Part shown: positions 4,676 through 47,110 of the stretch, piece after piece | How positions within the stretch are numbered: position 1 is the first letter of the stretch | Layout of the letters: each line of letters starts with the position of its first letter | Assembly (NCBI GenBank): GCA_029863625.1 | Contig: JAOTUY010000003.1 | Coordinates: 16,261 to 80,260, forward strand | DNA from: Acidimicrobiia bacterium | GTDB taxonomy: Bacteria > Actinomycetota > Acidimicrobiia > Spongiisociales > UBA4744 | Direction: 5' to 3' | DNA: 64,000 nt | Notes under the pieces: generated by a model | The model's input: the letters and a program-made list of their open reading frames with translations, nothing else | Database searches by the model: none | What the model was told of the DNA's origin: nothing | Made by a program: the position numbers and the translations under genes

Positions 4676-4758
4676 CAGTTTTCAGTCGGTCGGCCTACGG
4701 CCGAGCTCTCAGTGGTCAGTTGGTGGTGCTAGAAAGTGATGACTGATGACTGATGACT
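4676..4758. repeat. Intergenic repeat family 1 (heptamer arms around GGCCTNCGGCC hairpin)
   Basis: CAGTTTTCAGTCGGTCGGCCTACGGCCG...TCAGTGGTCAG...(TGATGAC)x3 at 4737-4757; homologous to copies at 10952, 44802 and 47036. Confidence 0.85.
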
Positions 4759-4766
4759 TCTCGTCC

Positions 4767-5600
4767 TCAGTCCCCTTGACCTGATCCCCCGTGGTCCGCG
4801 TGCCCGGTGCGGTCAAAATGGCGGTGGCGACCGGCAATGGCTTGATGGTAGGGGTCGTCGAGGACGACCGTACCGTCCTCGGTGGTGATGAGATTGATCC
4901 CGTACGCCTTGGTCAGGCATTGGGCGGTGAGCACCTCCTCTGGCGGGCCCGAGGCGACCACCCGGCCCGATAGCAAAACGACGTGATCCGCATTGGCTGC
5001 TTCGCTCAGATCGTGGGTGGTCATTACAACGGTTACGCCGCGGGCACGCTCGGTAGCGACCGCCTCCAGGATGCGATCGTGCGACACAATGTCCAGGCCG
5101 GTGACCGGTTCGTCGAGGAGCAGCAGGTCGGCTTCCTGCGCCAGACCTTGCGCGACGAAAACGCGCTGACGTTGGCCACCGGATAGCTCATCGAGGTGTC
5201 GTGCGGCGAGATCGAGCACATCAAGGCGTTCCATGGCCGAACGGCAGGCAGCGCGGTCTTCTGGTTGGAACCGACCGAACATCCCGAGACGGCCGTACCG
5301 GCCCATCGACACCACTTCGCGCACCGTGATCGGCATCTCTTCGTGCACCTTGGTGGTTTGCAGAACATAGGCCGTTCCCCGGTGTCTTGGGTAGCTGAGC
5401 AATACACCCAGCTCGCCGCCGACCGGCTCGAGTAAACCGCCGATGGCGTGCAGCAGGGTGGATTTTCCGGATCCGTTTGGCCCGATGACGGCCGTCACGG
5501 TTCCGGCCGGTATGTCGAGATCTGACGCGCCGAGAGCGATGCGATCGCCATGGGCGAGCTGCAACCCGCGGGCGGTGATGGCGATGTCTTTCACCGACAT
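4767..5600 (-). CDS. Metal (Zn/Mn) ABC transporter ATP-binding protein
   Basis: Walker A GPNGSGKS, LSGGQRQR, LLLLDEP; His-rich C-terminal tail; adjacent to the Fur-family gene and metal ABC genes. Confidence 0.92.
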   Translation of the reverse strand: MSVKDIAITARGLQLAHGDRIALGASDLDIPAGTVTAVIGPNGSGKSTLLHAIGGLLEPVGGELGVLLSYPRHRGTAYVLQTTKVHEEMPITVREVVSMGRYGRLGMFGRFQPEDRAACRSAMERLDVLDLAARHLDELSGGQRQRVFVAQGLAQEADLLLLDEPVTGLDIVSHDRILEAVATERARGVTVVMTTHDLSEAANADHVVLLSGRVVASGPPEEVLTAQCLTKAYGINLITTEDGTVVLDDPYHQAIAGRHRHFDRTGHADHGGSGQGD

Positions 5601-6034
5601 TGGCTGCACACTCCTTGCAGGTCCAGGCGGTGACCGGTGACGGTGAAATCGAAACGCCTCCCCACCTCCGAGGCGATGTCGGCGACGGTTGCTTCGAGAT
5701 CACCCGGCACAGCCACGTCACTGGTGGCACCGCACTCGATGCAGGTCATGTGGTGGTGATGTCCGGTCAGCCATTCGGCCAGCTCGTAGCGGGCGATGCC
5801 TGCCTGGTCGGGGAAACGTTCGATTACCTCGGTCTCCTCGAGAACCGAGAGGGTCCGATAGAGCGAGGACATCGGAATGGCGCCGGCGACCGCCACGGCG
5901 AGGTCGGCTGCCGATTGGGGACCGGATGACCCATCGAGCGTTTCGATGACCAAACGCCGGGCGGGTGTGAACCGCGCTTGCTTGGACTCCAAACGGTTCC
6001 TCGCCGCGGTGAGTGTGTCGTTCCGTTGACGCAT
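5591..6034 (-). CDS. Fur-family metalloregulator (probably Zur)
   Basis: SSLYRTLSVLEE, HHHHMTCIECG and GVCSQC (two CxxC pairs). Confidence 0.92.
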   Translation of the reverse strand: MRQRNDTLTAARNRLESKQARFTPARRLVIETLDGSSGPQSAADLAVAVAGAIPMSSLYRTLSVLEETEVIERFPDQAGIARYELAEWLTGHHHHMTCIECGATSDVAVPGDLEATVADIASEVGRRFDFTVTGHRLDLQGVCSQCR

Positions 6035-6061
6035 CGTGCGACCAATGCTACCTTGTAAAGC

Positions 6062-6082
6062 GAATGAGAACCATTCTCATTC
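6062..6082. promoter_or_regulatory. Fur/Zur-type operator
   Basis: Perfect 9-3-9 inverted repeat GAATGAGAA-CCA-TTCTCATTC between the divergent regulator and SBP genes; resembles actinobacterial Zur boxes. Confidence 0.8.
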
Positions 6083-6093
6083 CAAATAGGATT

Positions 6094-7026
6094 ATGAAAC
6101 GCTTCCTGGTTCTCGCAGTCGTTTTCGCCACGGTTGGTTCCGCCTGCCGCGCCCCCGAAGGGGGCAGGGACGATCGGCCATTGGTGATCGCAACGACCAC
6201 GATCCTCGGCGACATTGTTGCCAGTACGGCCGGCGACGCAGTGCAGGTTGAAGTGCTGATGCCGATTGGTGCCGATCCTCACGACTTTGCACCATCGGCG
6301 CGCCAGGCCGCGCGGTTGCGGGACGCAACCCTGGTGGTAGCCAATGGTGTCGGATTGGAAGAGTCTCTGCTGGATGTGATCGACGCCGCCGAGCAGGACG
6401 GTGTCGAAGTGATGAGGGTCGGTGAGCTGGTCGATCCCCAGCCATTTCTCGCCGGGCTGGGCGCCGCAACCCAAGGTAGTGCTTCGTCCGGCAATGACCA
6501 TCAGGGTCTCGATCCCCACGTGTGGATGGATCCGGTCCGCATGGCCGCCGCCGTCGAGGCCATCGCCGATCGTCTCGGTACCAGTGCGGGTGTGGATGTC
6601 ATAGATTCCGCCGCGGCCTACCAAACCCGGATTCTGGATCTAAACGTCGAGATCGTCCGGATGATCGAAGCGGTCCCGCCGGACCGTCGCAAGATGGTGA
6701 CCAACCACTTCTCGTATGGTTACTACGCAGATCGCTACGGGATTACCCTGCTCGGGGCAGTGATCCCCGCTTCTACCACCGGAGCCGAGACCAGCGCCGC
6801 CGATTTCGCCGCGTTGGTCCGACTCCTCAAACGGGAAGAAGTTTCGGTGGTGTTTGGATCAACCACGGAACCAACCACTCTGGCCGACGCCCTGGCCGAG
6901 GAGGTGGGCTACGAGGTTAAGGTGGTCAAGCTCCCGACCGGGTCCCTCGGCGAGCCTGGTTCAGGCGCGGAGACCTATATCGATATGATGCGCTCGAGCA
7001 CTCGTCTCATCGTTGAGAACCTGTAA
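6094..7026 (+). CDS. Metal ABC transporter substrate-binding lipoprotein (cluster A-I, ZnuA/TroA-like)
   Basis: Start MKRFLVLAVV with lipobox GSAC; GADPHDFAPS, DPHVWMDP and TNHFSYGYYADRYG motifs. Confidence 0.93.
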   Translation: MKRFLVLAVVFATVGSACRAPEGGRDDRPLVIATTTILGDIVASTAGDAVQVEVLMPIGADPHDFAPSARQAARLRDATLVVANGVGLEESLLDVIDAAEQDGVEVMRVGELVDPQPFLAGLGAATQGSASSGNDHQGLDPHVWMDPVRMAAAVEAIADRLGTSAGVDVIDSAAAYQTRILDLNVEIVRMIEAVPPDRRKMVTNHFSYGYYADRYGITLLGAVIPASTTGAETSAADFAALVRLLKREEVSVVFGSTTEPTTLADALAEEVGYEVKVVKLPTGSLGEPGSGAETYIDMMRSSTRLIVENL

Positions 7027-7043
7027 ATGACAGAAGGATCCAT

Positions 7044-7895
7044 ATGGACTGGCTGATCGACCCGTTGTCCGAGCCGTTCATGCAACGGGTCCTGGTTGGA
7101 AGTGCCCTGGCCGTGATGACCGCCTCCCTGATAGGCACCTGGATCGTGCTGCGGGGGCTCAGCTTCATGGGTGACGCCCTTGCCCACGGCGTGACCCCCG
7201 GGATTGCCTTGGCCTTCGCCCTGGGTTTCAACCTCACGCTGGGGGCTATCGGCGCAGCAGTTGCCATGACGCTGGGGATCAACCTGGTTCACCGGAAGGC
7301 CCAGCTACGCGAGGACACCGGAATTGGCTTGCTGTTCGTCGGCATGCTGGCTCTGGGCGTCATCATCATGTCCCGGTTGCCTTCGTTTTCCGGCAACCTG
7401 GCCACCATTCTGTTCGGCGATACGCTCGGTATAAGACAAGAAGACATTGTGGTGCAAGCGCTGGCGGCTGTGGTGACCTTGGCGGTCATTGTGATCTTCT
7501 ACCGGGCCTTTATCGTACTGTCCTTCAATGAGGAGAAGGCTGAGATGTTGGGACTGCGACCCAGCCTGGCACATCTCCTCATGCTGTCCCTGCTGACGTT
7601 GGCCATCGTGACCTCGTTTCGGGCGGTGGGGACCCTGCTGGTCTTTGCGTTGATCGTGGCGCCTCCGGCCACGGCCTCGCTGGTGGTTCGGCGAGTACCA
7701 ACGATGATGGTGACGGCGGTTGCTTTCGGCTTTCTCGCTGTTTTGAGCGGTCTCTTGATCAGCTGGCATGCAGACACCGCAGCCGGAGCGACCATGGCCT
7801 TTGTCTCGGTGGCGATCTTCTTTGTAGTGCTGGCCCTTCGTGAGTTTTGGAACATTGGAGTCTTCAGTCCCCAGTCGTCGGTTATCAGTGGGTAG
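7044..7895 (+). CDS. Metal ABC transporter permease
   Basis: LRGLSFMGDALAHGVTPG, ILFGDTLG and VGTLLVFALIVAPPATA. Confidence 0.93.
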   Translation: MDWLIDPLSEPFMQRVLVGSALAVMTASLIGTWIVLRGLSFMGDALAHGVTPGIALAFALGFNLTLGAIGAAVAMTLGINLVHRKAQLREDTGIGLLFVGMLALGVIIMSRLPSFSGNLATILFGDTLGIRQEDIVVQALAAVVTLAVIVIFYRAFIVLSFNEEKAEMLGLRPSLAHLLMLSLLTLAIVTSFRAVGTLLVFALIVAPPATASLVVRRVPTMMVTAVAFGFLAVLSGLLISWHADTAAGATMAFVSVAIFFVVLALREFWNIGVFSPQSSVISG

Positions 7896-7982
7896 CCCGT
7901 CTCCTTTCTCGTGTTCGTGAGCGAGGTTTGCGATGAGTGCTGAGGGCTGGTCACCGAGAACTTGAAACCTGGAATCTGAGAC
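7864..7982. repeat. Degenerate heptamer-arm element overlapping the permease 3' end
   Basis: Left arm CAGTCCC CAGTCGT CGGTTAT CAGT (7865-7889, inside the CDS); right arm with 7-nt periodic CTGA/CTGG/CCGA/CTTGA (about 7936-7982). Confidence 0.55.
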
Positions 7983-8040
7983 GCGCAGCCTTCTCACTGA
8001 CTGGCCCAGCCTCACCCCAACCATCTACCATGCGCCGGAC

Positions 8041-9189
8041 ATGGGTTTTCACCGCCAGACCGATTCCACCCCTGATGTCACCACCAGATTGCGCCGTCTC
8101 GCCGCCCTTTCTGGCGTGAGCGGCGTGATGCTCGTGGCCATCGCGGGATGGAGCGCCTGGAGCGCCATCGAGCGGGTGCCTTTCCAAGACGCTGTGGCTG
8201 CTACGGATGTCTTGGAGACGGTCCCTTCTTCGGAGGTTGACGCTTTGCGCGCTGCCGAGGACGCGACCGAAGAGGCGGCCCGCCTTGCCGAACAAGACGA
8301 ATTGGAGGCGGAACTGCTGGCCGAGTTGGAGGCGCGACGCGAGCGTCTGATCCGGACGCAAGTCGAGATCGAGATACCTTTCCTGACCAGTCCGGAGCTA
8401 CCAGACGACCTGTTCACGTCCTACCTGCTGGTTGGAGTCGAGGGTGGTTTCCGCGCCGACACCATCATCTACCTGCTCCGGCCCTCGGACGGGTCCGCGC
8501 CGATCATGTTGTCGCTTCCGCGCGATCTATATCTTCGGAATCCGTGCACTCAGCGCTACACGCGTATCAATGCCGGTCTGGGGGGCTGTGCCGGCTACGC
8601 CGGTGGTGCCGAGTTGCTCTCTTTGATGGTGAAGGAATTCACCGGCATAAAGGTCGACCGCTTTGCCCGAGTAGATTTCAGCGGCTTCAAGCATGTGATC
8701 GACGCCCTCGGGGGGGTCGAGATCTGTGTCGAGAACGCGGTAAGGGACGACAAAGCCCAATTGGATTTGCCCGCTGGCTGCTCCCGGGCAGGGGGAGACC
8801 AGGCGCTGGCGTGGGTTCGATCGCGACGCACAGAGGAGTTCGTCGACGGCGAGTGGCGACGAATTCCCGGCGTTAGCGACTTCACCCGCCAGCGGAAACA
8901 ACAGGATATGCTGTTCAAAATTGCCGGAAGAATGAACTCGTTTGCGTCTCTTGCATCCTTTTCAGACGTGGCCTCGAGCCTGGCCGGCACCATCGCGTTG
9001 GACGCGGGGTTCTCCTTCGGTGACGCGGTGTCGTTGGCCTGGCAGTTCCGCGGAACGGACGCCTCCGACGTCAAGCGAGTCTCGATCCTGGTCAGGGACT
9101 ATGTGACCAGCGCCGGAGCGTATGTGCTGGTGCCCACTGCTACGTTCAACGAGTCGCTAGCCAAGGTGTACCCGGCCGCGGCCCGCTGA
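8041..9189 (+). CDS. LCP (LytR-CpsA-Psr) family cell-wall phosphotransferase
   Basis: N-terminal TM; RADTII, LSLPRDLY, RINA, VDFSGF, QALAWVRSR and DFTRQRKQQ motifs. Confidence 0.92.
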   Translation: MGFHRQTDSTPDVTTRLRRLAALSGVSGVMLVAIAGWSAWSAIERVPFQDAVAATDVLETVPSSEVDALRAAEDATEEAARLAEQDELEAELLAELEARRERLIRTQVEIEIPFLTSPELPDDLFTSYLLVGVEGGFRADTIIYLLRPSDGSAPIMLSLPRDLYLRNPCTQRYTRINAGLGGCAGYAGGAELLSLMVKEFTGIKVDRFARVDFSGFKHVIDALGGVEICVENAVRDDKAQLDLPAGCSRAGGDQALAWVRSRRTEEFVDGEWRRIPGVSDFTRQRKQQDMLFKIAGRMNSFASLASFSDVASSLAGTIALDAGFSFGDAVSLAWQFRGTDASDVKRVSILVRDYVTSAGAYVLVPTATFNESLAKVYPAAAR

Positions 9190-9193
9190 TTGG

Positions 9194-9288
9194 GAGCTTC
9201 GAGCTTCGGGCTACGAGCCTCCGGATGCCTCCTCCCTGCGAGTGAAGCGAGTCGGCTGCGGGGAGTACCGCCGGAGGCGGGGAGGGGG
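9194..9288. repeat. Heptamer array plus repeat family 2 (CGAG.GAAGCGAGTCGG element)
   Basis: GAGCTTC GAGCTTC GGGCTAC GAGCCTC (9194-9221), then ctgcgagtgaagcgagtcggctgcggggagtacc, closely matching 32725-32760. Confidence 0.75.
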
Positions 9289-9314
9289 ACTGATCCCACC
9301 AACGTCGCTGCTGG

Positions 9315-9642
9315 CTACACCAACTCGAACGTCGTCTCGATCGGTACATAGCCGCGGACGGTGGTGGCCACCGAGCACATTTCGGCATGACTCGGGCGAA
9401 TGGCGTCTTCCGCCCGGGCGGTGGTGAGAGAGGGGCCCGACACTCGGTAGTGAAGCCAGAATCTCTGGAACTTCCAGGGTGATCGGGTTTCTTATTGAAA
9501 GTGACTTCGATGGAGAGGGCGGTGAGACGCTCTCGCCGAGCTATGACACAAGGTCGACACCCGAGCATGAGGCAGAGCCATAGGCAGCAAGTCGGAAGGA
9601 CGCACCCCCCAGTTCCTGGGGGCCATCAATGTCAACGGGCAT
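9315..9642 (-). pseudogene. OsmC/YhfA-like protein pseudogene (N-terminally truncated, about 4 frameshifts)
   Basis: Fragments in alternating frames join to: MPVDIDGPQELG / GVRPSDLLPMAL / ASCSGVDLV / IARRERLTALSIEVTFNKKPD / PWKFQRFWLHYRVSGPSLTTARAEDAIRPSHAEMCSVATTVRGYVPIETTFELV*. Both OsmC-family Cys motifs are present. Confidence 0.8.
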
Positions 9643-9645
9643 TTC

Positions 9646-10944
9646 CTAGTCGAGTTTGAGCGCTTCCAGCCTCTCGAAGACAATGGCGGCATTGGCGAGG
9701 AATCGTTCCACCGAAAAGCAGGCCGCCAGCTGTTGGGGCGATAGGGTGACTTCCGGGTCGACCTTGAGCAGATCGAGGAGATGCTCGCTACCTTCCCAGG
9801 CCGCCAGCGCGTTCCGTTGCACGATCCGGTAGGCCTTGTCGCGACTCAAGCCCTCCTCAACGAGAGCCAGCAGCACGGCTTGACTGAACACCAGGCCGCG
9901 GGTGGCTTCGAGATTGGCAAGCATGCGATCGCCGTCGACTTCGAGACCTTCTGCCAACCCGGCGAATCTCACCAGCATGTAGTGGAGGACGTAGCAGGCG
10001 TCCGGGATGATTACCCGCTCGGCCGAGGAATGGCTGATGTCGCGCTCGTGCCAGAGGGCCACGTTCTCAAGACCGGTCTGGGCGTAGCCGCGCAGGAGGC
10101 GGGCCATTCCGGTCATGCGCTCTGAGAGGATCGGGTTCCGCTTATGTGGCATAGCCGAGGAGCCTTTCTGGCCGGAACGGAAGGCTTCCTGCACCTCACG
10201 TACCTCGGATCGCTGCAGGTGACGGATCTCGGTGGCGAAACGCTCGATCGAAGCGCCGGTGAGTGCGATCGTCTGGAGGAATTCGGCATGCCGATCGCGA
10301 TGCGTGACCTGCGAAGAAGCAGGCTCGATGCCCAGGCCCAGGTGTTCACAGACGTACTTCTCGAGTTGGGGAGGTGTATGGGCGTAGGTTCCCACCGCTC
10401 CGCTGACCTTCCCAACCGCGACGGCCTTGCGAGCCCGGGTCAGCCGTTCGTGATCGCGGGCGAGTTCGAAAGCCCAGGTGGCCAGCTTCAGGCCGAGGGT
10501 GGTTGGTTCCGCCCAGATCCCGTGGGTGCGACCCAGCATGACCGTGTCACGATGTTCGAAGGCCTTGGCCTTCACCACGGCAAAGAGGTGTCCGGTCTCT
10601 TCGAGCAACAAGCCTGCTGCTTCATTGAGCAGCACGCCTTGGGCGCTATCGAGGACATCTGACGAAGTCAGCCCGTAATGCACCCATTCACCACCGGGGC
10701 CGGTGTTCTCGGCCAGGAGGTCGACAAAGGCAGCCAGGTCGTGGTTGGTGATCTCCTCCCGGGCCCTCCAGGCCGCCGGATCGACCGGAGGGGCACTGCG
10801 AACCGCGGTGGCCACTTCCGGGGGGGCGACCCCGAGTTCACTCCAGGCTTCAACGACCAGAGCTTCGACTTCTTGCCATACCGCCAGCTTGCGCTCTTCG
10901 GACCAGATGGCCGACATTTCGGGAAGCGAGTAGCGAGGGATCAT
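9646..10944 (-). CDS. purB: Adenylosuccinate lyase
   Basis: [31 protein letters not shown] and the signature [11 protein letters not shown]. Confidence 0.97.
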
Positions 10945-10951
10945 GGGAGGA

Positions 10952-11044
10952 AGTTATCAGTAATCGGTCATCAGTTGTCAGTTTCGACGGTTCGCTGATG
11001 ACTGAAAGGACGGCCGCAGGCCGACCGACTGATCACTCATGATT
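10952..11044. repeat. Intergenic repeat family 1 (reverse orientation)
   Basis: Reverse complement reads TCAGTCGGTCGGCCTGCGGCCGTCCTTTCAGTCATCAG, with outer heptamer arms (AGTTATC AGTAATC GGTCATC AGTTGTC on the + strand). Confidence 0.85.
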
Positions 11045-11057
11045 GCATAGCCAGCGC

Positions 11058-11519
11058 CTATGCCAGCGTCTGCTCTGCCAGCTGCTCCCGGTATTCGGCC
11101 AGTTGCCCCGCCAGGCCTTCGTCATTGAGGGCCAAGATGGCAACGGCCAGCAGGGCGGCGTTGGCTGATCCATCGACGGCGACCGTTGCTACGGGGATTC
11201 CGGTTGGCATTTGCACGGTGGCGAGCAGCGCGTCGAGACCTTGCAGGGAGGCGCTGAGCGGTACCCCGATCACCGGAAGCAGCGACTTGGCAGCCATGGC
11301 CCCGGCCAGATGGGCAGCCTTCCCGGCTCCGGCGATAATGACCGAGAAACCCTGATCGGCGGCTGTAGCTGCAAACTCAGAAGCGGCATCTGGGGTCTTG
11401 TGAGCCGATAGCACGCGCGTGTTGCACTCGACGCCGAACCGGGCGAGCAGGTCGGCGGCAGCTTGCATCTTGGGTTGATCCTTGGCGGATCCCATCACTA
11501 TGGCGACCTTGCTCATCAT
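11058..11519 (-). CDS. purE: PurE (N5-CAIR mutase / AIR carboxylase family)
   Basis: [50 protein letters not shown]. Confidence 0.95.
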
Positions 11520-12784
11520 GTACCTTTCGATTTTCCGGCGATATCCGGACGATATTGTTTTCCTGCAAACTCGATCGCCTGGGCCGCCGCATAAGCGCGG
11601 TGGCGCGCCTCGGGAAGGCTTGCCCCGGTGCCGACGACGTTGATGACCCGACCGCCGTAGGTCTTCAGTGTTCCCTCCTGGCGGACGGTTCCGGCCTGGA
11701 AGACGAGCACGCCCGGCACAGCGGCCGCGGTGGCTACCCCCGAGATTGGATCACCGCGTCTCGGACTCTCCGGGTAACCGGCCGCTGCCAGCACCACATC
11801 GACCGCTGCATCGTCTGACCAGGTGAGGTCCAGGGTGTGGGCCTTACCATCGAGACACGCCAGGATCACCTCCACCAGGTCGTCCTCGAGTAGGGGAAGG
11901 ACCACCTGGGTTTCGGGATCACCGAGCCGGCAGTTGAACTCGAGCACTCGGGGGCCGGCCTCGGTGAGAACGAGTCCGGCATAGAGAAACCCCCGGTAGG
12001 GGGTCCCTGCTGTTTCCATCTGCTGCAGTACCGGGCCCATGACATGGTCGAGTGTCCAGTCGACCAATCCGTCCGGTAGATCTTCGACCGGCGAGTAGCA
12101 CCCCATGCCCCCGGTGTTGGGTCCCTGGTCACGTTCGCCGAGTCGCTTGTAATCGCGGGCCGGTTGCAGGGGAACGGCCGTTTTCCCGTCGCACAGGGCG
12201 AACACACTCACTTCAGGCCCGGCCAGGTAGTCCTCGATCACGATCGTGTATCCCGCTTCTTCGAAATCTCCGCTCAGACAGCGATCGACCCATGCCCGGG
12301 CCTCGTGAAGGTCCTCGGTGACCAGCACTCCCTTGCCTGCCGCCAGACCGTCGGCCTTGACTACAAAGGGGCCTGTTCGTTTCTCCAGGTATTCGATCGC
12401 CGGTTCCCGGTTGGTGAACACGCCGGCTGCGGCCGTTGGGACACCGGCCCGTTCCATGATGGTCTTGGCAAAGGATTTTGATGATTCCAGTCGGGCGGCG
12501 GCTCGCGAGGGCCCGAAGGCGCGGACTCCCCGGCGAGTCAGCGCATCGATCACACCAGCCGCCAGGGGCGCCTCCGGCCCAACGACTACCAGGTCTATGT
12601 CTTGTTGGTCGGCGATCGCCGCCACCGCGCCAACATCGGTTGCCGAGACCCCTTCAACCACCGGGCCCAACTCGGCCAGCCCGGGGTTGCCGGGCAAGGA
12701 GATCAAGCTGGTCCGGGGGCTCTTGGCCATCTTCCAGCCGATGGCGTGCTCGCGCGCACCGCCTCCTAGCAACAGGACCTTCAC
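11516..12784 (-). CDS. purD: Phosphoribosylamine-glycine ligase
   Basis: Start re-called at GTG 12784 (overlapping the purA stop): [54 protein letters not shown]. Confidence 0.97.
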
Positions 12785-14058: not shown

Positions 14059-14218
14059 GCGATAGCTCCTTGGTGGCCGCGCCCGGCCATAGTAGTGGCG
14101 CCGCACGGAGCCTCTCGGGGGAAGCAGACTGCTCAGCAAAATGCAGTGCGATCGGTCGGGGCTGCTTCGCTGTGTGGTGTCACTAAGCTCAAGCTGCGCT
14201 GAACCCGGAGGGACTATC

Positions 14219-16029: not shown

Positions 16030-16036
16030 TGCCGGT

Positions 16037-35033: not shown

Positions 35034-35054
35034 GAGCGTGCTCAGCTGTGTTTC

Positions 35055-35825: not shown

Positions 35826-36012
35826 GCCCTTCCTCCTCATGTTTGGTCGGGATTCTCGGCCATCCGATCGTTTCTCCCTGGGGAATGCTAGGCGGTTCCA
35901 GTGGGAGCTGCCCAACCGGGTCCGGGTTGGTCTATTCGCGCCAATCACTATTCTGATAGATCACCGACGCCGCCGTCCGGTTGGGTAGCGTCTTAGGATC
36001 CGAGGTTGATCT

Positions 36013-37887: not shown

Positions 37888-37894
37888 CGGCGCC

Positions 37895-37993
37895 GTATTG
37901 CGGATTTCGTACTTCCGTTTCTCGTTCTTCGTTTTCCCGATTTACGACTGGTGACTGGTTACTGATGACTGGTTACCGCGAGCGAAGCGAGCC
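37895..37993. repeat. Two consecutive degenerate heptamer arrays plus GCGAGCGAAGCGAGC
   Basis: atttcgt acttccg tttctcg ttcttcg ttttccc, then gactggt gactggt tactgat gactggt, then gcgagcgaagcgagcc. Confidence 0.7.
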
Positions 37994-38083
37994 ATTTCCA
38001 GTTGAAACAGACCACGCGCGGTAGCTATGGTCGAGGTATCCCGGGAGTGCTCCCGGTACCCGACCATGCTTGGGAGGAGAGGG

Positions 38084-39181: not shown

Positions 39182-39194
39182 AGGCATTGAACGA

Positions 39195-39220
39195 GGGGGA
39201 CCGGCAGTTGCCGGTCCCCC
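39195..39220 (+). terminator. Stem-loop downstream of the SBP gene
   Basis: GGGGGACCGGCA-GT-TGCCGGTCCCCC followed by CTTCTT. Confidence 0.6.
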
Positions 39221-39238
39221 CTTCTTGAGTGAGGTGAG

Positions 39239-40423
39239 GTGACGGTAGCCAGAGAGACGAAGACCGGTACGGCACGTCCGCCCTTCTGGCGCGACGTCAA
39301 GGTGCTTCGCATTGTCGCCCAACTGGTCGCCGGCGCCGGCTCAGTAGCGCTCCTCTGGTATCTGGGGAGCAACCTGACCACCAACCTCACCGCGCAGGGG
39401 ATCTCTACCGACTTCGGATTTCTCGACCAACCGGCCGGGGTCACCGTGCCAGGTTCTGATTTCAGATCCTCGCAGCCTATTTCGGACATCTTGGTTCTGG
39501 GTATCAAGAACACGTTTGCTCTCGTGATCGTCGGGATTCCCCTTTTGACCATCCTCGGCACGCTGATTGGGATCGGCAGGCTGTCAAGCAACTGGCTGGT
39601 CCGCAAGGCGGCAACGGCCTACGTGGAAACCCTCCGCAACATTCCTCCTCTGCTGGTCATCATCTTTACCAACACCGCCGTAATCCTGGCGTCGCTGCCC
39701 CGCATCCAGGAGGCGTGGCAGCCGTTCGACCTCTTCGTGCTCTCCAACCGTGAGCTGGCGGTGCCGTGGTTCACGGCCGGTGACGGATCCGGGGCGTATC
39801 TGGGAGTCTTGGCCGCCGGCGTGGTTGCATCGATCGCAGTGTGGATTTGGCGAACCCGGCAATTCGATGCCACCGGCACTCCCCACCATCGTTTCTTCTG
39901 GGGTACGGGCGTCTTCCTCCTGTTTGCGGTGGTCGGCTTTTTCGTCATCGGCAATCCTTATTCGCTGTCTCGCCCAGAGCTGGAGGGGTTGGTGATTACC
40001 GGTGGGATCAGCAACATCAGCGCCTACTTTGCGGTACTGCTGGCGCTCGTCATCTACACCGCCAGCCATGTGGCCGAGATCGTGCGGGGCAGCATTCAGG
40101 CGGTTGCGAAGGGTCAGACCGAAGCTGCCAATGCTCTGGCGTTGAGCAGTTTCCAGCGGCTCCGGTTCGTCGTGCTTCCGCAGGCCTTTCGGATTGCCAT
40201 TCCGCCGCTCATCAACCAGTTCCTCAACTTCACCAAGAACTCGTCACTGGCGATTGCCATCGGCTACTCGGAGATCACTCTGGTGGTGTTCCAGGCCATC
40301 GGCAACGGCCAACCAGCTCCGCAGTTGATCATCATTCTCATGGGGGCGTACCTGTTGTTCTCACTGAGCATCTCGTTGTTGATCAACATCCTGAATCGAC
40401 GCCTTCAATTGGTGACCAACTGA
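39239..40423 (+). CDS. aapQ: General L-amino acid ABC transporter permease
   Basis: RPPFWRD, GIGRLSSNWL, YVETLRNIPPLL, EIVRGSIQAVAKGQTEAA, KNSSLAIAIGY. Confidence 0.9.
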   Translation: MTVARETKTGTARPPFWRDVKVLRIVAQLVAGAGSVALLWYLGSNLTTNLTAQGISTDFGFLDQPAGVTVPGSDFRSSQPISDILVLGIKNTFALVIVGIPLLTILGTLIGIGRLSSNWLVRKAATAYVETLRNIPPLLVIIFTNTAVILASLPRIQEAWQPFDLFVLSNRELAVPWFTAGDGSGAYLGVLAAGVVASIAVWIWRTRQFDATGTPHHRFFWGTGVFLLFAVVGFFVIGNPYSLSRPELEGLVITGGISNISAYFAVLLALVIYTASHVAEIVRGSIQAVAKGQTEAANALALSSFQRLRFVVLPQAFRIAIPPLINQFLNFTKNSSLAIAIGYSEITLVVFQAIGNGQPAPQLIIILMGAYLLFSLSISLLINILNRRLQLVTN

Positions 40424-41658
40424 TGGCCGTCCGGACCGAGACCGCCTCCCTTCGAAGACCGAGCCCGGCGCTGCGCTGGGTGCGCGAGAACCTGTTCAAC
40501 AATTGGTACAACTCGGTGCTTACGGTCATCTTCGGGGCGCTCTTCATCTGGGTCGGGTTCAGCCTGCTTCGCTGGGTTTTCTTCCGAGCCGAATGGGAGA
40601 TCGTCAGAGTCAACCTCACTTTGTTCATGGTCGGTCGATTTCCTCGGGACGAATTGGCCAGAATCTGGGTGAGCAACTACATGATCGTCGGAGCCATCGG
40701 CCTCATGGCCGGTGCGGCCACGGCTTCGGCTGCCGCCGCTGCCAAGGAAGCCGGTCTTCCCTTCGTTCAGTCGAAACTGCAAGACTTGATTCAGCGGTTC
40801 TGGCCGGTGCTCCTGCTGGTCGCTGCTCTGCTCCAGTTCAGCCGCACTTGGACACCCACGATCATGACGGTGGGGATGGTCGTCATCGGCGTTGCCGCCC
40901 GCTTCGCGGGTTTGCACCTACCCCGAGTGATCCGCCGGTATGCGTGGGTGCTCGTGGCTCTGCTCCTGATCGGTGCGTATGGAGCCCTGGTGTGGTTCGG
41001 AGGCTTTGGGTGGGATGACTGGGGTGGTCTCCACCTGACCCTATTCGTGACGGTGGCCGGGATCATCCTGGCGTTCCCTTTGGGTTTGTTGTTTGCTCTG
41101 GGCCGCCGATCGACCCTTCCGCTGGTGCGATTGTTGTCCGTCACCTACATCGAGTTCATTCGGGGCGTACCCTTGATCACCCTGCTGCTCATGGGCGCCT
41201 TCGCTCTGAAGTTCCTGCTGCCCCCGGGGATGGACCTCAGTCTGGTGTCTCGGCTGGTCGTGGCGATCATGCTCTTCACCGCCGCTTATGTGGCAGAGAA
41301 TGTCCGAGGAGGGTTGCAGGCGGTACCAAAAGGCCAGACCGAAGCAGGGCAGGCGCTCGGGTTGCCCGCCTGGAAGGTAATGCGCCTCATCGTGCTGCCT
41401 CAGGCGCTGCGGGCGGTGATCCCGGCCATGGTGGGCCAGTTCATCAGCCTTTTCAAGGACACGTCTCTGCTGGTGGTCGTCGGTGTCTTTGAGTTGCTGG
41501 CCGTTTCGTCGATCGCCAACAACCAGCCCGAGTTCCTCGGAAAAGGTCTGGCAGAAGTGACCTTGCCATTTGTGGCGGTGATTTACTGGGTTGGTGCGTA
41601 CACGATGTCGAGAGAGAGCCGGCGACTCGAGAAGAAACTCGGAGTAGGAGAGCGATGA
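40423..41658 (+). CDS. aapM: General L-amino acid ABC transporter permease
   Basis: Start re-called at MAVRTET (overlapping the upstream stop); [40 protein letters not shown]. Confidence 0.9.
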
Positions 41659-42428
41659 CTCAAAACAACGTATATTCCGACGCAACTCAGGCGAGGGGTG
41701 ACGTCATTATCGAGGTGCAGGGCGTGGACAAGTTCTTCGGTGACTTCCAGGCGCTCAAGAACATCAACCTGAATGTCGGGAAACAGGAAGTAATCGTCGT
41801 GATGGGCCCCTCCGGCTCCGGAAAGTCGACGCTCATCCGCTGCATCAATCGCCTCGAGAAACATGACGCCGGTCGGATCGTGGTCGACGGGGTGGAACTC
41901 TCCGACGACATCCGCAACATTCAGGAGATCCGCCGTGAGACGGGCATGGTGTTTCAACAGTTCAATCTATTTCCGCACTTAACGGTATTGGACAACATCA
42001 CCCTCGCCCCCCGCCAAGTGCGCAACATGCCCAAGAACGAGGCCGAGGAGATGGCCATGCTGCAGCTCGAGCGGGTGAAGATCCCCGAGCAGGCGCATAA
42101 GTATCCGGGCCAGCTGTCGGGTGGTCAGCAGCAACGGGTGGCCATCGCCCGATCGCTGGCGATGCAGCCCAAAGTGATGCTGTTCGATGAACCGACCTCA
42201 GCACTCGACCCGGAGATGATCAAAGAGGTGCTTGACGCCATGCAGGAGCTGGCGGAGTCGGGGATGACCATGATTGTGGTCACTCACGAGATGGGCTTCG
42301 CCCGAGCGGTGGCCAACCGGGTGCTCTTCATGGCCGACGGCGAGGTCGTTGAGGTCGGCACCCCCCAGCACATCTTCGAGAACCCGGACGAGGACCGGAC
42401 GAAGCTGTTCCTGAGCCAGATCCTCTGA
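41655..42428 (+). CDS. aapP: General L-amino acid ABC transporter ATP-binding protein
   Basis: [47 protein letters not shown]. Confidence 0.92.
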
Positions 42429-42449
42429 GCGAAGCTCAGAGGATCTGGA

Positions 42450-42498
42450 GTACTCAGTACTCAGTGCCCAGTACCCAGTACTCGGTACCCAGTACCGG
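42450..42498. repeat. Heptamer tandem array, left arm (GTAC[T/C]CA x7)
   Basis: GTACTCA GTACTCA GTGCCCA GTACCCA GTACTCG GTACCCA GTACCGG; preceded by hairpin TCCTCTGAGC-GAA-GCTCAGAGGA (42421-42443). Confidence 0.9.
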
Positions 42499-42525
42499 GA
42501 ATCCGGGTAGTCAGTATCTGCTGTT

Positions 42526-42879
42526 TCAGCTAGTCAGGCTTCGTTCGAGACCATGCAACATTGCTCTGATGTCCCCCAGTTCCTGCAGGAGTTGTCGGTG
42601 CTGGTCGGAAGCAAGGAAGGAGAGGTCGAGGCTCAGGTCGAGCTGGGTTTCGACTTCGCAAGCCGATCCGATAGCCATTCTGATGAAGCGTCCAAAGTCG
42701 CCCGGGCTTGCTCTTCCGGCTCCTTCGGCGATGTTCGATGGGATGGATACGGCGGCTCGCCGGAGCTGTCTCGTCAGGCCGAATCTCTCGTCTGCTGGGA
42801 AGTCATAGGTGGCGTTGTAGATCTCGAGTACGAGATGTCGGCTTCGTCTCCACACATCCAGTCGGCGGTAGTCATGCAT
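42526..42879 (-). CDS. Four-helix-bundle protein (23S rRNA-IVS / S23 / Avd-like family)
   Basis: YRRLDVWRRS and FPADERFGLTRQLRRAAVSIPSNIAEG are hallmark motifs, plus AIGSACEVETQL. Confidence 0.93.
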   Translation of the reverse strand: MHDYRRLDVWRRSRHLVLEIYNATYDFPADERFGLTRQLRRAAVSIPSNIAEGAGRASPGDFGRFIRMAIGSACEVETQLDLSLDLSFLASDQHRQLLQELGDIRAMLHGLERSLTS

Positions 42880-42929
42880 GTCATGTGACTATCACAACTC
42901 GACTCTGATCAGAAGTGCCCTGTCGCTCA

Positions 42930-42990
42930 GTACTGAGTACTAGGTACTGAGTACTAGGTACTGAGTACTAGGTACTGAGTACCAGGTACA
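42930..42990. repeat. Heptamer tandem array, right arm, inverted relative to the left arm
   Basis: (GTACTGA GTACTAG)x3 GTACTGA GTACCAG GTACA; TGAGTAC is the reverse complement of left-arm GTACTCA. Confidence 0.92.
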
Positions 42991-42993
42991 TTT

Positions 42994-43530
42994 CTAGCCG
43001 CTTCCCGTCAGGCTTGCCGCCACCATTCTCGCCTCGTCGGGTCCGGTGGGGGGATAGAACACCAGGTAGTACAGGTCGCATCGATCGAGGCCCTCGTACC
43101 AGGCGACTCCCCAGATCCCTTCACCGAGATCGCCCAGAGCCGCCTTTTCTCCCCGGATTTCGATCGTTTCCGGTGTGTTGATCCAGCGAATGGGAGGTAG
43201 TGCTCCCCGCACCATTGCCAGAACCGGGATCCCGGCTTCGTCCGTCCAGCCGGTGACAATCGTTCCGGGTTGCAGAGTGAACTCGTCGAGGGGTACCGCC
43301 GATACGTCGGGTTGGTCATCGGTCACCCGATCGGGCAGGACCGTCGGCAGAAAGGTCGGAGGGTCACAAGTCTCGGGAGCCGGTTCGGTCGTGAGTGTTG
43401 TGGTGGGGATGGTCGTAGGCGTGATGGGGATCGTGATGGTGGATGCTGTTGTGGTGGAATCGCCTGCGCTGGTGCAGGCGGCCAGCACCAGCGTCATGGC
43501 TATGGCGAGCAGAGACCGATGGGTGAACAC
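42994..43530 (-). CDS. Hypothetical lipoprotein with Thr-rich linker
   Basis: Lipobox LAAC, Thr/Pro-rich segment, two further Cys in the globular part. Confidence 0.8.
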   Translation of the reverse strand: MFTHRSLLAIAMTLVLAACTSAGDSTTTASTITIPITPTTIPTTTLTTEPAPETCDPPTFLPTVLPDRVTDDQPDVSAVPLDEFTLQPGTIVTGWTDEAGIPVLAMVRGALPPIRWINTPETIEIRGEKAALGDLGEGIWGVAWYEGLDRCDLYYLVFYPPTGPDEARMVAASLTGSG

Positions 43531-43643
43531 GGAGGGCAGCGTACCCGACGGAGGCCCGACGTCCGTGAACCTCGTGGCCAGACCGCCCGGGCGGTGGTGG
43601 TACCGTGATTCGGCTCTGCACGGACTAAATAAACGAGGACGTC

Positions 43644-44786
43644 ATGGATCTGAAAGCTCGCGCCGATAAGGCCTTTACGGACGTTGAAACCGCACTGGCC
43701 GGCATCAATCGGTGGATGTACGACAACCCGGAGATCGGATTCGAGGAGCACAACACCTCGGCGCGGCTGGCGAGTTTCCTCGCCGAGCACGGGTTTGCGG
43801 TCGAGTACCCGGCGTACGGCCTGGAGACGGCCTTTGTCGCCCGGGTTGGGTCCGGAGGACCCGAGGTGATCATATGCGCCGAGATGGATGCGCTCCCCAC
43901 CGTCGGTCACGCCTGCGGGCACAACATCATTGCCACGTCCGCGCTCGGTGCCGGCGTGGCCCTAGCTCCTTTGGCAAATGAGCTGGGAATCAGGCTGACG
44001 GTGCTCGGCACACCCGCCGAGGAGAAGATGGGGGGCAAGGTTGATCTCATCAATGCCGGTGCCTTCACCGGAGCCGCCGCCTCGATGATGGTGCACCCTT
44101 CCAACAGCGATGTCGTCGATCCCAATGTGCTGGGGGTCCGGCACATCGACCTAGAGTTCCACGGCAAGGACTCGCACGCAGCTTTCGCCCCTCAGCTCGG
44201 TATCAACGCCTTGGATGCCTTCGTCCAGGCCTACGTCAACGTGTCGATGCTACGCCAGGCTCTCTACCCGACCGACAAGATCCACTCGATCATCACCCAC
44301 GGCGGGGATGCACCAAACATCATTCCTAGCTACACCCGCTCTTCATGGTACGTGCGGGCCGCGACGCGAGAGCGGATGGAGGAACTCTACGACCGGGTGA
44401 CGGCCTGTTTCGAATCCGCCGCCACAGCCACCGGGTGCACATGGAACGTGGAAACCATCGGGCATCCGTTCGAGGACATGGTGAGCAACCCAGTCATGGT
44501 CGAGCTGTTTGCGGCCAATGCCGCGGCCCTGGGGCGGACCATGGGTCGGGGGGCCGATGAAGAACCGGGGGCGGCCGGGTCGACCGACATGGGAAATGTG
44601 AGCCAGGTCGTACCCTCGATCCATCCCTTCCTGACCATCAATCCCGGTGATGCCGTCAATCATCAACCCGAGTTTGCCGCCCATACCGTGACCGCCGATG
44701 GTGAACAGGCCATTCGTGACGGCGCCCTGGCGATGGCCTGGACGGTGATCGACCTGGCAGTTGCAGACCGGTGGGGAGAGCTGTAG
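43644..44786 (+). CDS. M20 family amidohydrolase
   Basis: NPEIGFEEH, AEMDALP, HACGHN, GTPAEE, GSTDMGNVS. Confidence 0.92.
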   Translation: MDLKARADKAFTDVETALAGINRWMYDNPEIGFEEHNTSARLASFLAEHGFAVEYPAYGLETAFVARVGSGGPEVIICAEMDALPTVGHACGHNIIATSALGAGVALAPLANELGIRLTVLGTPAEEKMGGKVDLINAGAFTGAAASMMVHPSNSDVVDPNVLGVRHIDLEFHGKDSHAAFAPQLGINALDAFVQAYVNVSMLRQALYPTDKIHSIITHGGDAPNIIPSYTRSSWYVRAATRERMEELYDRVTACFESAATATGCTWNVETIGHPFEDMVSNPVMVELFAANAAALGRTMGRGADEEPGAAGSTDMGNVSQVVPSIHPFLTINPGDAVNHQPEFAAHTVTADGEQAIRDGALAMAWTVIDLAVADRWGEL

Positions 44787-44801
44787 CCGAGTGACGCTCC
44801 G

Positions 44802-44908
44802 CAGTTGTCAGTTATCAGTCGGATGGCCTGCGGCCGCCCTTTCACTCGTCAGTTCGAGCAAAGAACCGGGTCCCCACAGTGGGGACCCGGCGGTGATGAC
44901 TGATGACT
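44802..44908. repeat. Intergenic repeat family 1 with an extra internal 11-bp hairpin
   Basis: CAGTTGTCAGTTATCAGTCGGATGGCCTGCGGCCGCCCTTTCACTCGTCAG...CCGGGTCCCCA-CAG-TGGGGACCCGG...TGATGACTGATGACT. Confidence 0.85.
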
Positions 44909-44915
44909 CTTCTCA

Positions 44916-45887
44916 CTACTTCTCCGGTGGTGGGACGGGACGCCGGAACACGGTTCGCTCTGGGCGTCTTTCGCCCGTCGCACCCTCCGGGGCGAACAGT
45001 TCGCCGATGGCTCCGATGCTCGACATGATCCCGCTCATCTCCACCGGGAGGAACACCTTGGTGGCCTGGCCGTTGGCGATGCCCTGCAACGCCTCCAGGT
45101 AGCGGATCGCGATCAAGTCGGGGGTTGGGTCACCGGTGTGGATGGCCCCGAATACCCGCTCGATAGCTTGTCCTTCACCTTCGGCCACCGTCAGCTTCTG
45201 GTATTTGTCGGCATCGGCGACCCGCTTGATGGCTTCGGCCTGACCTTCTGCCTCGAGGATCTGGGCTTCCTTCACACCCTCGGCCCTGAGGATGGCGGAT
45301 CGCTTCTGACCCTCGGCCTCAGTGACGACCGCCCGGCGGTCCCGCTCGGCCTTCATTTGGCGGTGCATGGCGTCGGTGACGTCCGGGGGCGGCTCGATCC
45401 TCTGGATTTCGACCCGCACCACCCTGGTGCCCCATTTGTCGGTGGCATCGTCAAGGATCTCGCGCAGCTTGGCGTTGATCAGTTCACGTGAGGTGAGCGC
45501 TTCGTCCAACTGCAGGTCACCGACGACGTTACGAAGGTTGGTCTGGGCGAGCTTGGTGACGGCCAGCACGAAGTTGCTGATGTTGTACTTCAGCTTGACC
45601 GGGTCGGTGGCCTCGAAGTAGATAACTGCGTCGACGGTGACAACCACGTTGTCCTTGGTGATGACTTCCTGGGGCGGAACATCGATCACCTGTTCACGCA
45701 TATCGACTTTGAGTAGTCGCTTGACGAAGGGGAGGACCCAACGGAGGCCGGGGTCGACCGTTCGCTGGTAACGGCCCAGGAATTCGATCAGCCCTTTTTC
45801 GAACGGCCGGACGATCCTAAGCCCGGCCCCGGCAAAGACGATCAGCACAATTGCCAGGACTACGAACAGGATGATTACTGCTTCCAT
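44916..45887 (-). CDS. SPFH/band 7 (stomatin/QmcA-like) protein
   Basis: N-terminal TM; [41 protein letters not shown]. Confidence 0.95.
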
Positions 45888-45920
45888 TCAGACCCTCTCT
45901 TTCGCGCCGTTATCCAACAA

Positions 45921-46367
45921 TTAGGATTTCGGTGCCGTTGCGCGCACTACCAAACGGGTGCCCCGCACCTCGGTGATGGTCACCGGCGTTCCGGGTTCGA
46001 TGACGTCCCCATCGCTGGTGGCCCGCCATTCCTCCGACTCGACCCGGACCCGACCTGCGCCGGAGACAGGATCTACCCGCTCGAGCACGATCGCCTTCAT
46101 GTTCAGGTACCGGTTCGAGCCGATGCTCTTGGTGTCGTCGACGTCCTGTTTGTGGATGAACCGCTGCAGGTACATGAGCGTGCCAATCGATACGACAAAG
46201 AAGGCAACCCACTGCCACCCGACCGCAACTCCCACCCATGCCAGGATCCCGGCGACCGCGCCGCCGATGGCGAAGGGCAGCAGAAAGAATCCTGCAGTGA
46301 ATATCTCCCCAACCGCCAGCACAACTGCCAGCCCTGTCCACAACCAGCGCCAAATATCGTTTTCCAT
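45921..46367 (-). CDS. NfeD-like short membrane protein
   Basis: WLWTGLAVVLAVGEIFT...; C-terminal OB-like GRVRVESEEWRA; canonical partner of SPFH genes. Confidence 0.9.
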   Translation of the reverse strand: MENDIWRWLWTGLAVVLAVGEIFTAGFFLLPFAIGGAVAGILAWVGVAVGWQWVAFFVVSIGTLMYLQRFIHKQDVDDTKSIGSNRYLNMKAIVLERVDPVSGAGRVRVESEEWRATSDGDVIEPGTPVTITEVRGTRLVVRATAPKS

Positions 46368-46509
46368 GGAGTTGATTATCGCAGATGGAACCGTCACTAC
46401 GTCGGGAATTCAATTCGGCGGCCGGCTTCCAGCCTCCAGACCGCTTCGCTCCCAGCGGCTAGCTAGAACCGTGACATGCGGGCGCTGCTCGTCTCCTATC
46501 CTCCCAACC

Positions 46510-47016
46510 ATGGAACGCACGAGAACTGTGACCTGGGACGACACGAGCGGCAGCTTGGAAGCGGCGGCCTCAATGACCGGCCTCGAGTACATGAGGGCGA
46601 TTGCGGCCGGTGACCTGCCGGCCGCGCCCATCGCTCACCTGATCGGGATGGTCATGGAGGAGATCGAGGAAGGGGTGGCCGTATTCTCGATAGAACCGGC
46701 TGAGTACCTGTACAACCCGATCGGGTCGGTTCATGGTGGCGTGGCGGCGACCGTGCTCGACTCGGTTATGGGTTGTGCCATCCACACCACGCTTTCGCAG
46801 GGCGCGGGATATTCGACCGTCGAGCTGAGTGTCAACTACGTGCGCCCGATCACCGCTGAGACGCCGCGTCTCTTCGGTCGTGGACTGGTCGTTCACGCCG
46901 GCCGGCGTTTGGCTACCGCTGAAGCGCGCCTCAGCGACGCCGACGGCCGGCTTTACGCGCACGCCACGACCACGTGTCTCGTGATGAAGGTGGGTTCGGG
47001 TAACCCGGGTGGATGA
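46510..47016 (+). CDS. PaaI-family (hotdog) thioesterase
   Basis: Start re-called at MERTRTVTW; YNPIGSVHGGVAATVLDSVMGCA, TVELSVNYVRP. Confidence 0.9.
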   Translation: MERTRTVTWDDTSGSLEAAASMTGLEYMRAIAAGDLPAAPIAHLIGMVMEEIEEGVAVFSIEPAEYLYNPIGSVHGGVAATVLDSVMGCAIHTTLSQGAGYSTVELSVNYVRPITAETPRLFGRGLVVHAGRRLATAEARLSDADGRLYAHATTTCLVMKVGSGNPGG

Positions 47017-47035
47017 GGGCGAGCTGATGCTCGTG

Positions 47036-47110
47036 GTTGTCAGTTATCAGTCTCCCGGCCTCCGGCCGGGCTTCCAGTCGTCAGTCTTGCTGACTACTGA
47101 TTACTGACAG
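47036..47110. repeat. Intergenic repeat family 1
   Basis: GTTGTCAGTTATCAGTCTCCCGGCCTCCGGCCGGGCTTCCAGTCGTCAG...CTGACTACTGATTACTGAC, between convergent genes. Confidence 0.85.

Follow-up and report, generated by a model that had tools for sequence, protein, structure and literature searches.

Background

What are the short repeats that recur between the genes of a 64,000-nucleotide stretch of an uncultured Acidimicrobiia genome, here called the window: mobile elements, transcriptional terminators, or intergenic modules with a role of their own? The window covers positions 16261-80260 of contig C133 in a 3.08-Mb assembly (G000; 138 contigs, 62.8% GC). A first-pass annotation made from its letters alone had noticed four copies of a repeat, referred to below as family 1, in which arrays of tandem heptamers face each other in inverted orientation around a GC-rich hairpin, and had proposed a mobile family related to a gene-carrying cassette nearby. 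Here we report that family 1 is restricted to one genus and represents a composite form of the heptanucleotide-repeat class, with a constrained core and with arms and payloads that turn over quickly.

Heptanucleotide repeats have been known since the 1990s, as short tandemly repeated repetitive sequences (STRRs), and since 2007, as long simple sequence repeats (LSSRs), to be the most over-represented long simple repeats in many bacteria. Their function and origin are a long-standing puzzle. According to the two papers through which we cite the original proposal, they form a known, unexplained class for which slippage has been suggested (Mrazek 2007, as cited in PMC4679880 and PMC4692102), and one of these papers describes inverted pairs and strong between-species variation at conserved gene junctions (Rehm et al. 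2015, PMC4692102). Comparison within a single genus adds to the puzzle: a core outlasts neutral DNA, arms and payload are replaced wholesale at fixed sites, and the same type of arm brackets a PF05635 gene in sister species.

The family was sought in G000 and in 40 relatives, nine of them congeners (G001-G009), so that the genus is represented by ten genomes in all, several of them incomplete. Flanking genes were identified with Pfam.

Results and discussion

Architecture of the family-1 element

The four copies noticed at first are real. The core motif TCAGTCNNNNGGCCTNCGGCCG matches exactly four sites in the window as against 0.00 expected from 100 dinucleotide-preserving shuffles, and arm dimers of the ACTGANNACTGA type match seven times as against 0.03 expected. 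Together with the pairing of the arms as an outer stem, these counts establish a dispersed intergenic family with inverted heptamer arms. The copies are:

4676-4758, plus strand: copy 1; block at 4674-4723, right arm of three TGATGAC units at 4737-4758
10952-11044, minus strand: copy 2; block at 10991-11040, in the spacer between purE (stop at 11058) and purB (ATG at 10944)
44802-44908, plus strand: copy 3; block at 44807-44856, right arm at 44894-44908
47036-47110, plus strand: copy 4; block at 47039-47088 with the hairpin CCCGGCC-UCC-GGCCGGG, right arm at 47090-47108

A common layout emerges from the alignment of 39 model matches from G000 and its congeners. Often a GC hairpin that is older and specific to the locus stands first, where the upstream gene ends; after it come CAGTnnT units (CAGTTAT, CAGTTGT and CAGTTTT in the left arms of the window copies). 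These lead into a conserved block of about 30 nt that consists of CAGTCGG, a GC hairpin and CCCTTTCAGT; in the alignment its consensus reads CAGTCGG(T/G)CGGCC, a loop, and then GGCCGCCCTTTCAGT. On the 3' side of the block stand one or two further CAGT units, a payload, and the right array, whose units (TGATGAC, TGATTAC, TGATAAC and TGACAAC) are nnACTGA when read in another phase. A CT-rich tail (ACTTCTC, ACTTCCTCCC) frequently follows the right array. Payloads differ widely across copies and orthologous sites: there may be nothing (copy 4 has almost none), a GC terminator hairpin, some 90 nt of GC-rich repeat (G001 and G007), or the whole gene of a 4HBT thioesterase.

In the predicted fold of each of the four window copies the two arms pair as an outer stem, which is accompanied by a GGCC-NNN-GGCC hairpin and by another hairpin that is small or variable; relative to shuffled sequences, these folds have z-scores between -3.0 and -6.5. 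Some hairpin stems are lengthened by compensating changes, as in CCCGGCC/GGCCGGG and GGGCGGCC-GCAA-GGCCGCCC. Conservation extends to the primary sequence outside the hairpin stem. The core of copy 1 had been read as a C(UACG)G tetraloop; this register is wrong because it would place a C-C mismatch next to the closing pair, and the core is instead a triloop hairpin, UCGGCC-UAC-GGCCGA. A second hairpin that had been likened to this core, at 53209-53234, is unrelated: it lacks CAGT arms and does not match the family model. It is a perfect 11-bp GC stem with a true cUACGg tetraloop and no U-tract, between the plus-strand genes at 52733-53188 and 53251-54678.

A genus-specific class within a larger population of heptamer arrays

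Family 1 is larger than the window suggested. A strict regular expression finds six copies in G000; with nhmmer, or with a covariance model built on the 50-nt block, the count rises to 12. The four copies are genuine members of this larger set. Among the 40 relatives, strong model matches occur only in the same genus (at E <= 0.01: G001, 21; G002, 8; G003, 3; G004, 0; G005, 0; G006, 6; G007, 17; G008, 2; G009, 14). Other genera yield marginal matches only, which resemble bare arms and have E values of 0.0015 or worse. Family 1 is thus confined to one genus of uncultured sediment Acidimicrobiia.

Within genomes the copies are clustered. Gaps of less than 15 kb between copies number six in G001 (1.7 expected, p = 0.004), six in G009 (1.0 expected, p < 5e-5) and three in G000 (0.6 expected, p = 0.017); some of these clusters are syntenic between genomes and are therefore not independent.

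Family 1 is one sequence class within the heptamer-array population of its genome. G000 holds 145 arrays of strict period 7, of which 126 are non-coding, as against 13 in a block-shuffled genome; arrays of periods 8 to 11 are almost absent. Tandem units of 7 nt, in several unit families, are thus over-represented in its intergenic DNA, the property by which LSSRs and STRRs are recognised. The unit classes are GTAC (about 50 arrays), CAGT/ACTG (about 40), CCAG, GAAC and AGCT. About 6% of the spacers carry an array (convergent 7.1%, tandem 6.0%, divergent 4.6%), without strong preference for a class; these shares are approximate, since the gene callers used to classify spacers are crude. Two adjacent arrays at 37907-37976, between two plus-strand genes, consist of CGTTTCT/CGTTCTT and then GACTGGT/TACTGAT units; they are not mutually complementary, and therefore not every array pair forms a hairpin.

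No Rfam family matched the window at gathering thresholds, and none matched five payload-carrying loci of the relatives at E values up to 0.1. A second dispersed GC-rich repeat, GTCCTCTCCCGGCGTGAGCCGGGGGAGGTGGCCGAGCGGAGCGAGGTCGGAGGGGG, which is the payload of family-1 elements in G001 and G007, has no Rfam match either. It occurs three times in G000 (C14:104, C137:7162 and, on the minus strand, C20:29760), once beside a heptamer array. Looser variants stand in family-1 payloads at loci L053 (G001) and L041 (G003); the repeat's other loci are L084 and L085.

Fixed sites, replaced arms and payloads

Comparison of orthologous spacers separates what persists from what is replaced. In the purE-purB spacer, G002 carries an orthologous family-1 element that is 88% identical to that of G000 over its whole length. 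At the same place G005, G001, G009, G006 and G007 have hairpins built from other units (CCAGCnn/GCTGGnn, TTTCAGG/GCTGATA, CCAGTAG/GGAACTG), and G008 has no array. The spacer between the M20 peptidase and Band7 genes holds the block in G000, G006, G009 and G002b, the last with CCAG/CTGG-type arms around it; in G003 only the hairpin is left, with arms that are vestigial, the heptamer hairpins of G001 and G005 are unrelated, and G008 and G004 have none. In the spacer next to the ABC ATPase gene family 1 is found in G000 and G001, and other arrays in G005, G007, G002 and G009. GGACGGC is a further unrelated unit found at the equivalent spacers of congeners, and several more orthologous family-1 pairs are present across the genus.

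In the spacer between the NfeD-like and ClpB genes, just four of the ten genomes have a thioesterase gene, namely G000, G002 (where it is found on two contigs), G009 and G003; G006 has a different small gene. Relative to the thioesterase gene, family 1 lies upstream, in the divergent spacer, in G002 and G009 (partially in G003) and downstream in G000, and in G001 and G007 a family-1 copy antisense to both neighbours encloses the 90-nt payload. Between conserved flanks, the two contigs of G002 have different sequence over about 100 nt, a swap with sharp edges. Wherever it occurs, the thioesterase gene is at this spacer and is bracketed by heptamer arrays. Its presence in four of ten genomes, at a fixed spacer and between arrays, therefore amounts to cargo-like behaviour.

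Variation at the level of strains was not seen: contigs of the same population in four metagenomes span copies 1-3 without insertions or deletions, although contigs cannot exclude minor variants. Only in a relative of about 85% identity are 202 nt replaced by 259 nt at the site of copy 3.

These comparisons show that the copies are old and mostly vertically inherited, and that the sites are fixed and the block can persist, with arms and payloads replaced far faster than by point substitution. The first-pass annotation had listed a small number of copies, positional conservation and plain terminator behaviour as signs that would speak against its mobile-element reading. The copies are indeed few, and positionally conserved, in part and within one genus only; they do not behave as plain terminators, as discussed below.

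Conservation of the block

Between orthologous copies the identity of the block ranges from 0.73 to 0.90 (mean 0.81), and between non-orthologous copies it averages 0.73. Four-fold degenerate sites of the flanking genes are 0.40-0.62 identical between G000 and its congeners, which is near saturation for this GC content at third codon positions. Because block identity lies far above that of the four-fold sites, the block is either under purifying selection or continually homogenised by gene conversion.

The second of these alternatives leads to a reading that we consider improbable, namely that the elements are functionless by-products: heptamer arrays that polymerase slippage built up beside pre-existing GC hairpins, with gene conversion keeping the copies alike and the block a homogenised passenger. 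It would account for arms that begin directly after older gene-end hairpins in several species (at the M20 stop codon, for example, GCGGAGC..GCTCCGC runs straight into AGTT), for the clustering of copies within 1-15 kb, for their lack of strand bias or spacer-class preference, and for the weak covariation described below, and slippage of heptamers has already been proposed for such repeats (Mrazek 2007, as cited in PMC4679880 and PMC4692102). However, orthologous blocks are 73-90% identical between species though neutral sites are near saturation; every lineage would, on its own, have to keep up conversion toward one consensus. The invariant CAGT core within otherwise variable units, together with the fixed block, suggests instead that a factor recognises them.

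The window copies and their neighbours

Copy 1 is flanked by two minus-strand genes, with the stop codon of an ABC ATPase gene on one side (4767) and a membrane-protein gene's start (about 4599-4652) on the other, and is therefore antisense to both. The membrane-protein gene has an apparent 1-nt deletion near its N-terminus at 4599-4652 when compared with seven congeners (GTGATGAGCG as against GTGATCGAGCG); either the reading frame shifts there, or the gene starts at a downstream TTG, or the assembly is in error. Copy 2 is sense to the pur operon, and its right arm runs into ACTTCCTCCC just 5' of the purB ATG. Copy 3 lies between convergent M20 peptidase and Band7/SPFH genes; as its payload it carries a GC hairpin of 12 bp (44865-44891), which has a terminator score on the minus strand. 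Copy 4 lies between convergent genes for the 4HBT thioesterase (46510-47016) and ClpB (47120-49705). A 352-amino-acid open reading frame (ORF) at 45958-47016 had been a candidate for the gene upstream of copy 4, and we rejected it as a high-GC artefact that spans a divergent gene pair. In its place stand two real genes: on the minus strand, an NfeD-like gene (45910-46367) that shares an operon with Band7 (44916-45887), and on the plus strand, the thioesterase gene. The spacer between them is also occupied:

46368-46509, plus strand: divergent spacer that separates the NfeD-like gene from the thioesterase gene (ATG at 46510); in G000 it holds a short CCAG-type heptamer hairpin, which is not family 1

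This arrangement bears on the simplest explanation, that the elements are ordinary intrinsic terminators flanked by chance by slippage-prone repeats. The block does end like one, with a GC hairpin and then CCTTTC, and copies 3 and 4 follow directly on stop codons between convergent genes. Yet only three T residues follow the block, a consensus terminator scan does not call it in any copy, and the single hairpin that was called, the payload of copy 3, is on the opposite strand. Orientation is equally hard to reconcile with termination, given that copy 1, like the copies in G001 and G007, is antisense to both neighbours and that the G002 and G009 copies occupy a divergent promoter spacer upstream of a gene; a terminator would also leave the conserved primary sequence outside the stem unaccounted for. 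Since its U-tract is too short and copies are found sense, antisense and upstream of genes, the block is not a plain terminator, and we regard this explanation as very improbable.

Some elements reach into the leader of the next gene. The purB leader (window positions 10935-10952) has the pyrimidine tract ACTTCCTCCCATG and the thioesterase leader (46490-46512) the tract TATCCTCCCAACCATG; both resemble an anti-Shine-Dalgarno sequence and stand in place of a Shine-Dalgarno sequence. The leader pyrimidine tract is kept in congeners with a heptamer hairpin and is absent in G008, which has no hairpin. Genome-wide, GGAGG is the norm (266 as against 58 for CCTCC).

PF05635 cassettes and the possibility of exchange

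The window also contains the gene-carrying cassette to which family 1 had been compared:

42449-42989, minus strand: cassette with a PF05635 gene (23S_rRNA_IVP / Avd-like) at 42526-42879 (Pfam E = 4e-36)

The gene is flanked by inverted arrays of AGTACCC type (42449-42496) and GTACTGA/GTACTAG type (42929-42989). The comparison thus holds for the inverted heptamer arrays around a variable payload, and fails for the arms, which are of the GTAC and not the CAGT type. A second PF05635 gene of G000, on contig C111, has CCAG-type arms. Across the genus inverted heptamer arrays bracket all 14 of the well-matched PF05635 gene copies whose flanks were read, and the five arm classes found there (CAGT, GTAC, CCAG, CAGG and GAAC) recur as the principal classes among the arrays of G000 that carry no gene. 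At one orthologous locus, shared by G009, G007, G001 and G002, the arms are CAGTnnT and nnACTGA, which is the family-1 type; the CAGT-armed cassettes lack the conserved GGCC block. The idea of a common architecture with variable payload is supported, because in congeners a PF05635 gene sits between CAGT-type arms and the thioesterase gene is the payload at one site. At the corresponding site (C20:47765-48000) G000 lacks the gene and has instead a module in duplicate (GGATACTACGTATCCGACGTACCT...), accompanied by arrays of the GTAC type; G000 and all four congeners have kept the terminator hairpin that lies just beyond it.

From this material one could argue for a mobile or site-specific exchange system of which the family-1 elements would be the non-autonomous cassettes; its gene-carrying members would encode the PF05635 protein, which together with a putative catalytic partner would recognise the arms and move or swap the contents of preferred intergenic sites. 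The orthologous PF05635 locus between family-1-type arms, the bracketing of all 14 loci by arm classes shared with gene-less arrays, and whole genes as payloads (the thioesterase in four of ten genomes at one site, the small gene in G006) fit this reading, as do the sharp replacement boundaries, the different hairpins found repeatedly at one site and the local clustering of copies. Against it stand the lack of target-site duplications and clean empty sites, the absence of a gene for the transposase that accompanies repetitive extragenic palindromic (REP) elements, and the age and orthology of many copies; PF05635 has no known catalytic activity. Moreover, G000 and G006 have 12 and six family-1 copies, respectively, without any CAGT-armed PF05635 gene, and PF05635 cassettes have no GGCC block. 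Co-occurrence with four-helix-bundle genes is poor as well, in that copy numbers of the two features correlate only loosely across the ten genomes, several of which are incomplete. We therefore consider an exchange system unlikely.

A more specific form of this reading, which we offer with greater doubt still, would make the arms the attachment arms of an undescribed, transposase-less cassette-exchange system, with a pentamer of the Avd-like PF05635 protein as their binding partner, family 1 as its gene-less class and the GGCC block as a second recognition module. Preferred intergenic sites beside gene-end hairpins would then be loaded again and again with other arm classes and other payloads, be it nothing, small structured RNAs, the thioesterase gene or PF05635 genes. 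As matters stand, nothing shows that PF05635 mobilises anything, given the absence of the REP-associated transposase, the absence of target duplications and the G000 and G006 copies that occur without a CAGT-armed PF05635 gene, and the suggested division into autonomous and non-autonomous copies is unproven. In a full-text search of the collection of papers used here, none linked the intervening-sequence protein or Avd with heptamers or tandem repeats. If the PF05635 link were true, ribosomal RNA (rRNA) intervening sequences, Avd-like proteins and heptamer repeats would be connected.

A structural intergenic module as the most likely role

We hold, with moderate confidence, that the most likely role of family 1 is that of a structural intergenic module, which would act on transcript ends, stability or translation start or serve as a protein-binding platform; the mechanism we can only infer. 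The arms would grow, shrink and drift by replication slippage, and would be exchanged by recombination between nearby copies. The block would be the binding or structure module recognised by a putative host factor. Once transcribed, the long imperfect stem and the GC hairpin might act like REP elements or the stems of rRNA intervening sequences, either as a target for a double-strand-specific RNase or as a barrier to exonucleases, and might so set the ends and stability of the flanking cistrons. Before some genes, purB among them, the right arm and its pyrimidine tail may replace the Shine-Dalgarno leader.

Several observations weigh against this interpretation or against parts of it. The factor that would recognise the block is putative only, and copies kept alike by gene conversion could give the same picture as purifying selection. 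The hairpin shows weak covariation, with double changes in two of eight pairs, so conservation is mainly that of primary sequence. When 23 full elements were folded on both strands no strand asymmetry was found: the sense strand was the more stable in 13 of 23, and a strand test of G-U against A-C pairs gave 80 G-U pairs as against 64 (p = 0.12). Copies occur both sense and antisense to transcription. Lack of fold asymmetry and the occurrence of both orientations disfavour an RNA role that is specific to one strand; a role at the level of DNA, or a purely structural one, fits equally well. Finally, no RNA sequencing runs with the source sequence were found, the matches being confined to six DNA metagenomes from sediment. 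Comparison within the genus turns what was a vague repeat family into concrete questions about the factor that binds CAGT arms and block, the cutting of the stem in RNA and the exchange of payloads.

Comparison with known systems

REP elements and the bacterial interspersed mosaic elements (BIMEs) of enterobacteria and pseudomonads resemble family 1 in being short extragenic palindromes that lie in operon spacers and between convergent genes in either orientation and have plausible roles in mRNA stability and end formation. REP elements carry a conserved 5' GTAG head. The family-1 block begins with CAGTCGG, not GTAG; the elements are palindromic and extragenic, with 12 copies in G000 and 0-21 in congeners. 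The REP-like affiliation proposed at first is not sustained, because the gene for the Y1 transposase of REP elements (RAYT, PF01797) is absent from all ten genomes of the genus, in a search directed at the RAYT family, the control of which was positive in six of 14 reference genomes. Family 1 thus differs from REP/BIME sequences in having no RAYT gene, no GTAG head, tens rather than hundreds of copies, and arms of tandem heptamers.

The alternative of miniature transposable elements with inverted repeats (MITEs) fares no better. At none of the four window copies were flanking direct repeats seen, and orthologous sites are occupied by other heptamer hairpins or diverged sequence and are not precise empty sites. 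The elements therefore do not look like classical MITEs; their copy number is low, and their arms consist of units in tandem and not of unique terminal inverted repeats.

The intervening sequences of 23S rRNA and the related cassettes of PF05635 (S23p / Avd-like) genes share with family 1 inverted ends that form a long stem around a variable insert, and the arms of PF05635 cassettes in this genus are heptamer arrays, in one case of the family-1 type. Excision by RNase III of an intervening sequence with an ORF of the PF05635 type has been described (Warrier et al. 2016, PMC4990558), and by analogy the family-1 stem would be a substrate of RNase III. The four window copies differ in that they contain no ORF, lie between protein-coding genes and not in rRNA, and have the additional GC-hairpin block.

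TAACTGA direct repeats have been reported just 5' of start codons without Shine-Dalgarno sequences in marine Beggiatoaceae, Cyanobacteria and Bacteroidetes (MacGregor 2015, PMC4679880). The right-arm units of family 1 are variants of the same heptamer (TAACTGA, TGACTGA and CAACTGA), and the arrays at purB and at the thioesterase gene of congeners end a few bases before a start codon that has no Shine-Dalgarno sequence. In contrast, an exact (TAACTGA)x2 is absent from G000, and family-1 arrays are inverted, as against 169 direct sets and one indirect set in BOGUAY. The characteristic position is also not general: 19 of the 79 forward nnACTGR arrays of G000 lie within 45 nt upstream of a coding-like start.

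The heptamer elements of this genome are of one kind with the TAACTGA repeats and with the LSSRs (the STRRs of cyanobacteria, GGGAATC in Xanthomonas, GGGGATT in Nostoc; Mrazek 2007; Rehm et al. 2015, PMC4692102). Family 1 departs from the LSSRs in belonging to an uncultured, high-GC genus of Acidimicrobiia, in using CAGT/ACTG units rather than G-runs, and in that its arrays serve as arms within a composite element, around a block that is conserved and not repetitive and a payload that varies, which is an arrangement not in those papers. What it shares with them is the tandem 7-nt unit with its strong intergenic enrichment, the presence of several unit families in a genome, the occurrence of some inverted pairs, and the wide variation of length and sequence between close relatives at one and the same gene junction.

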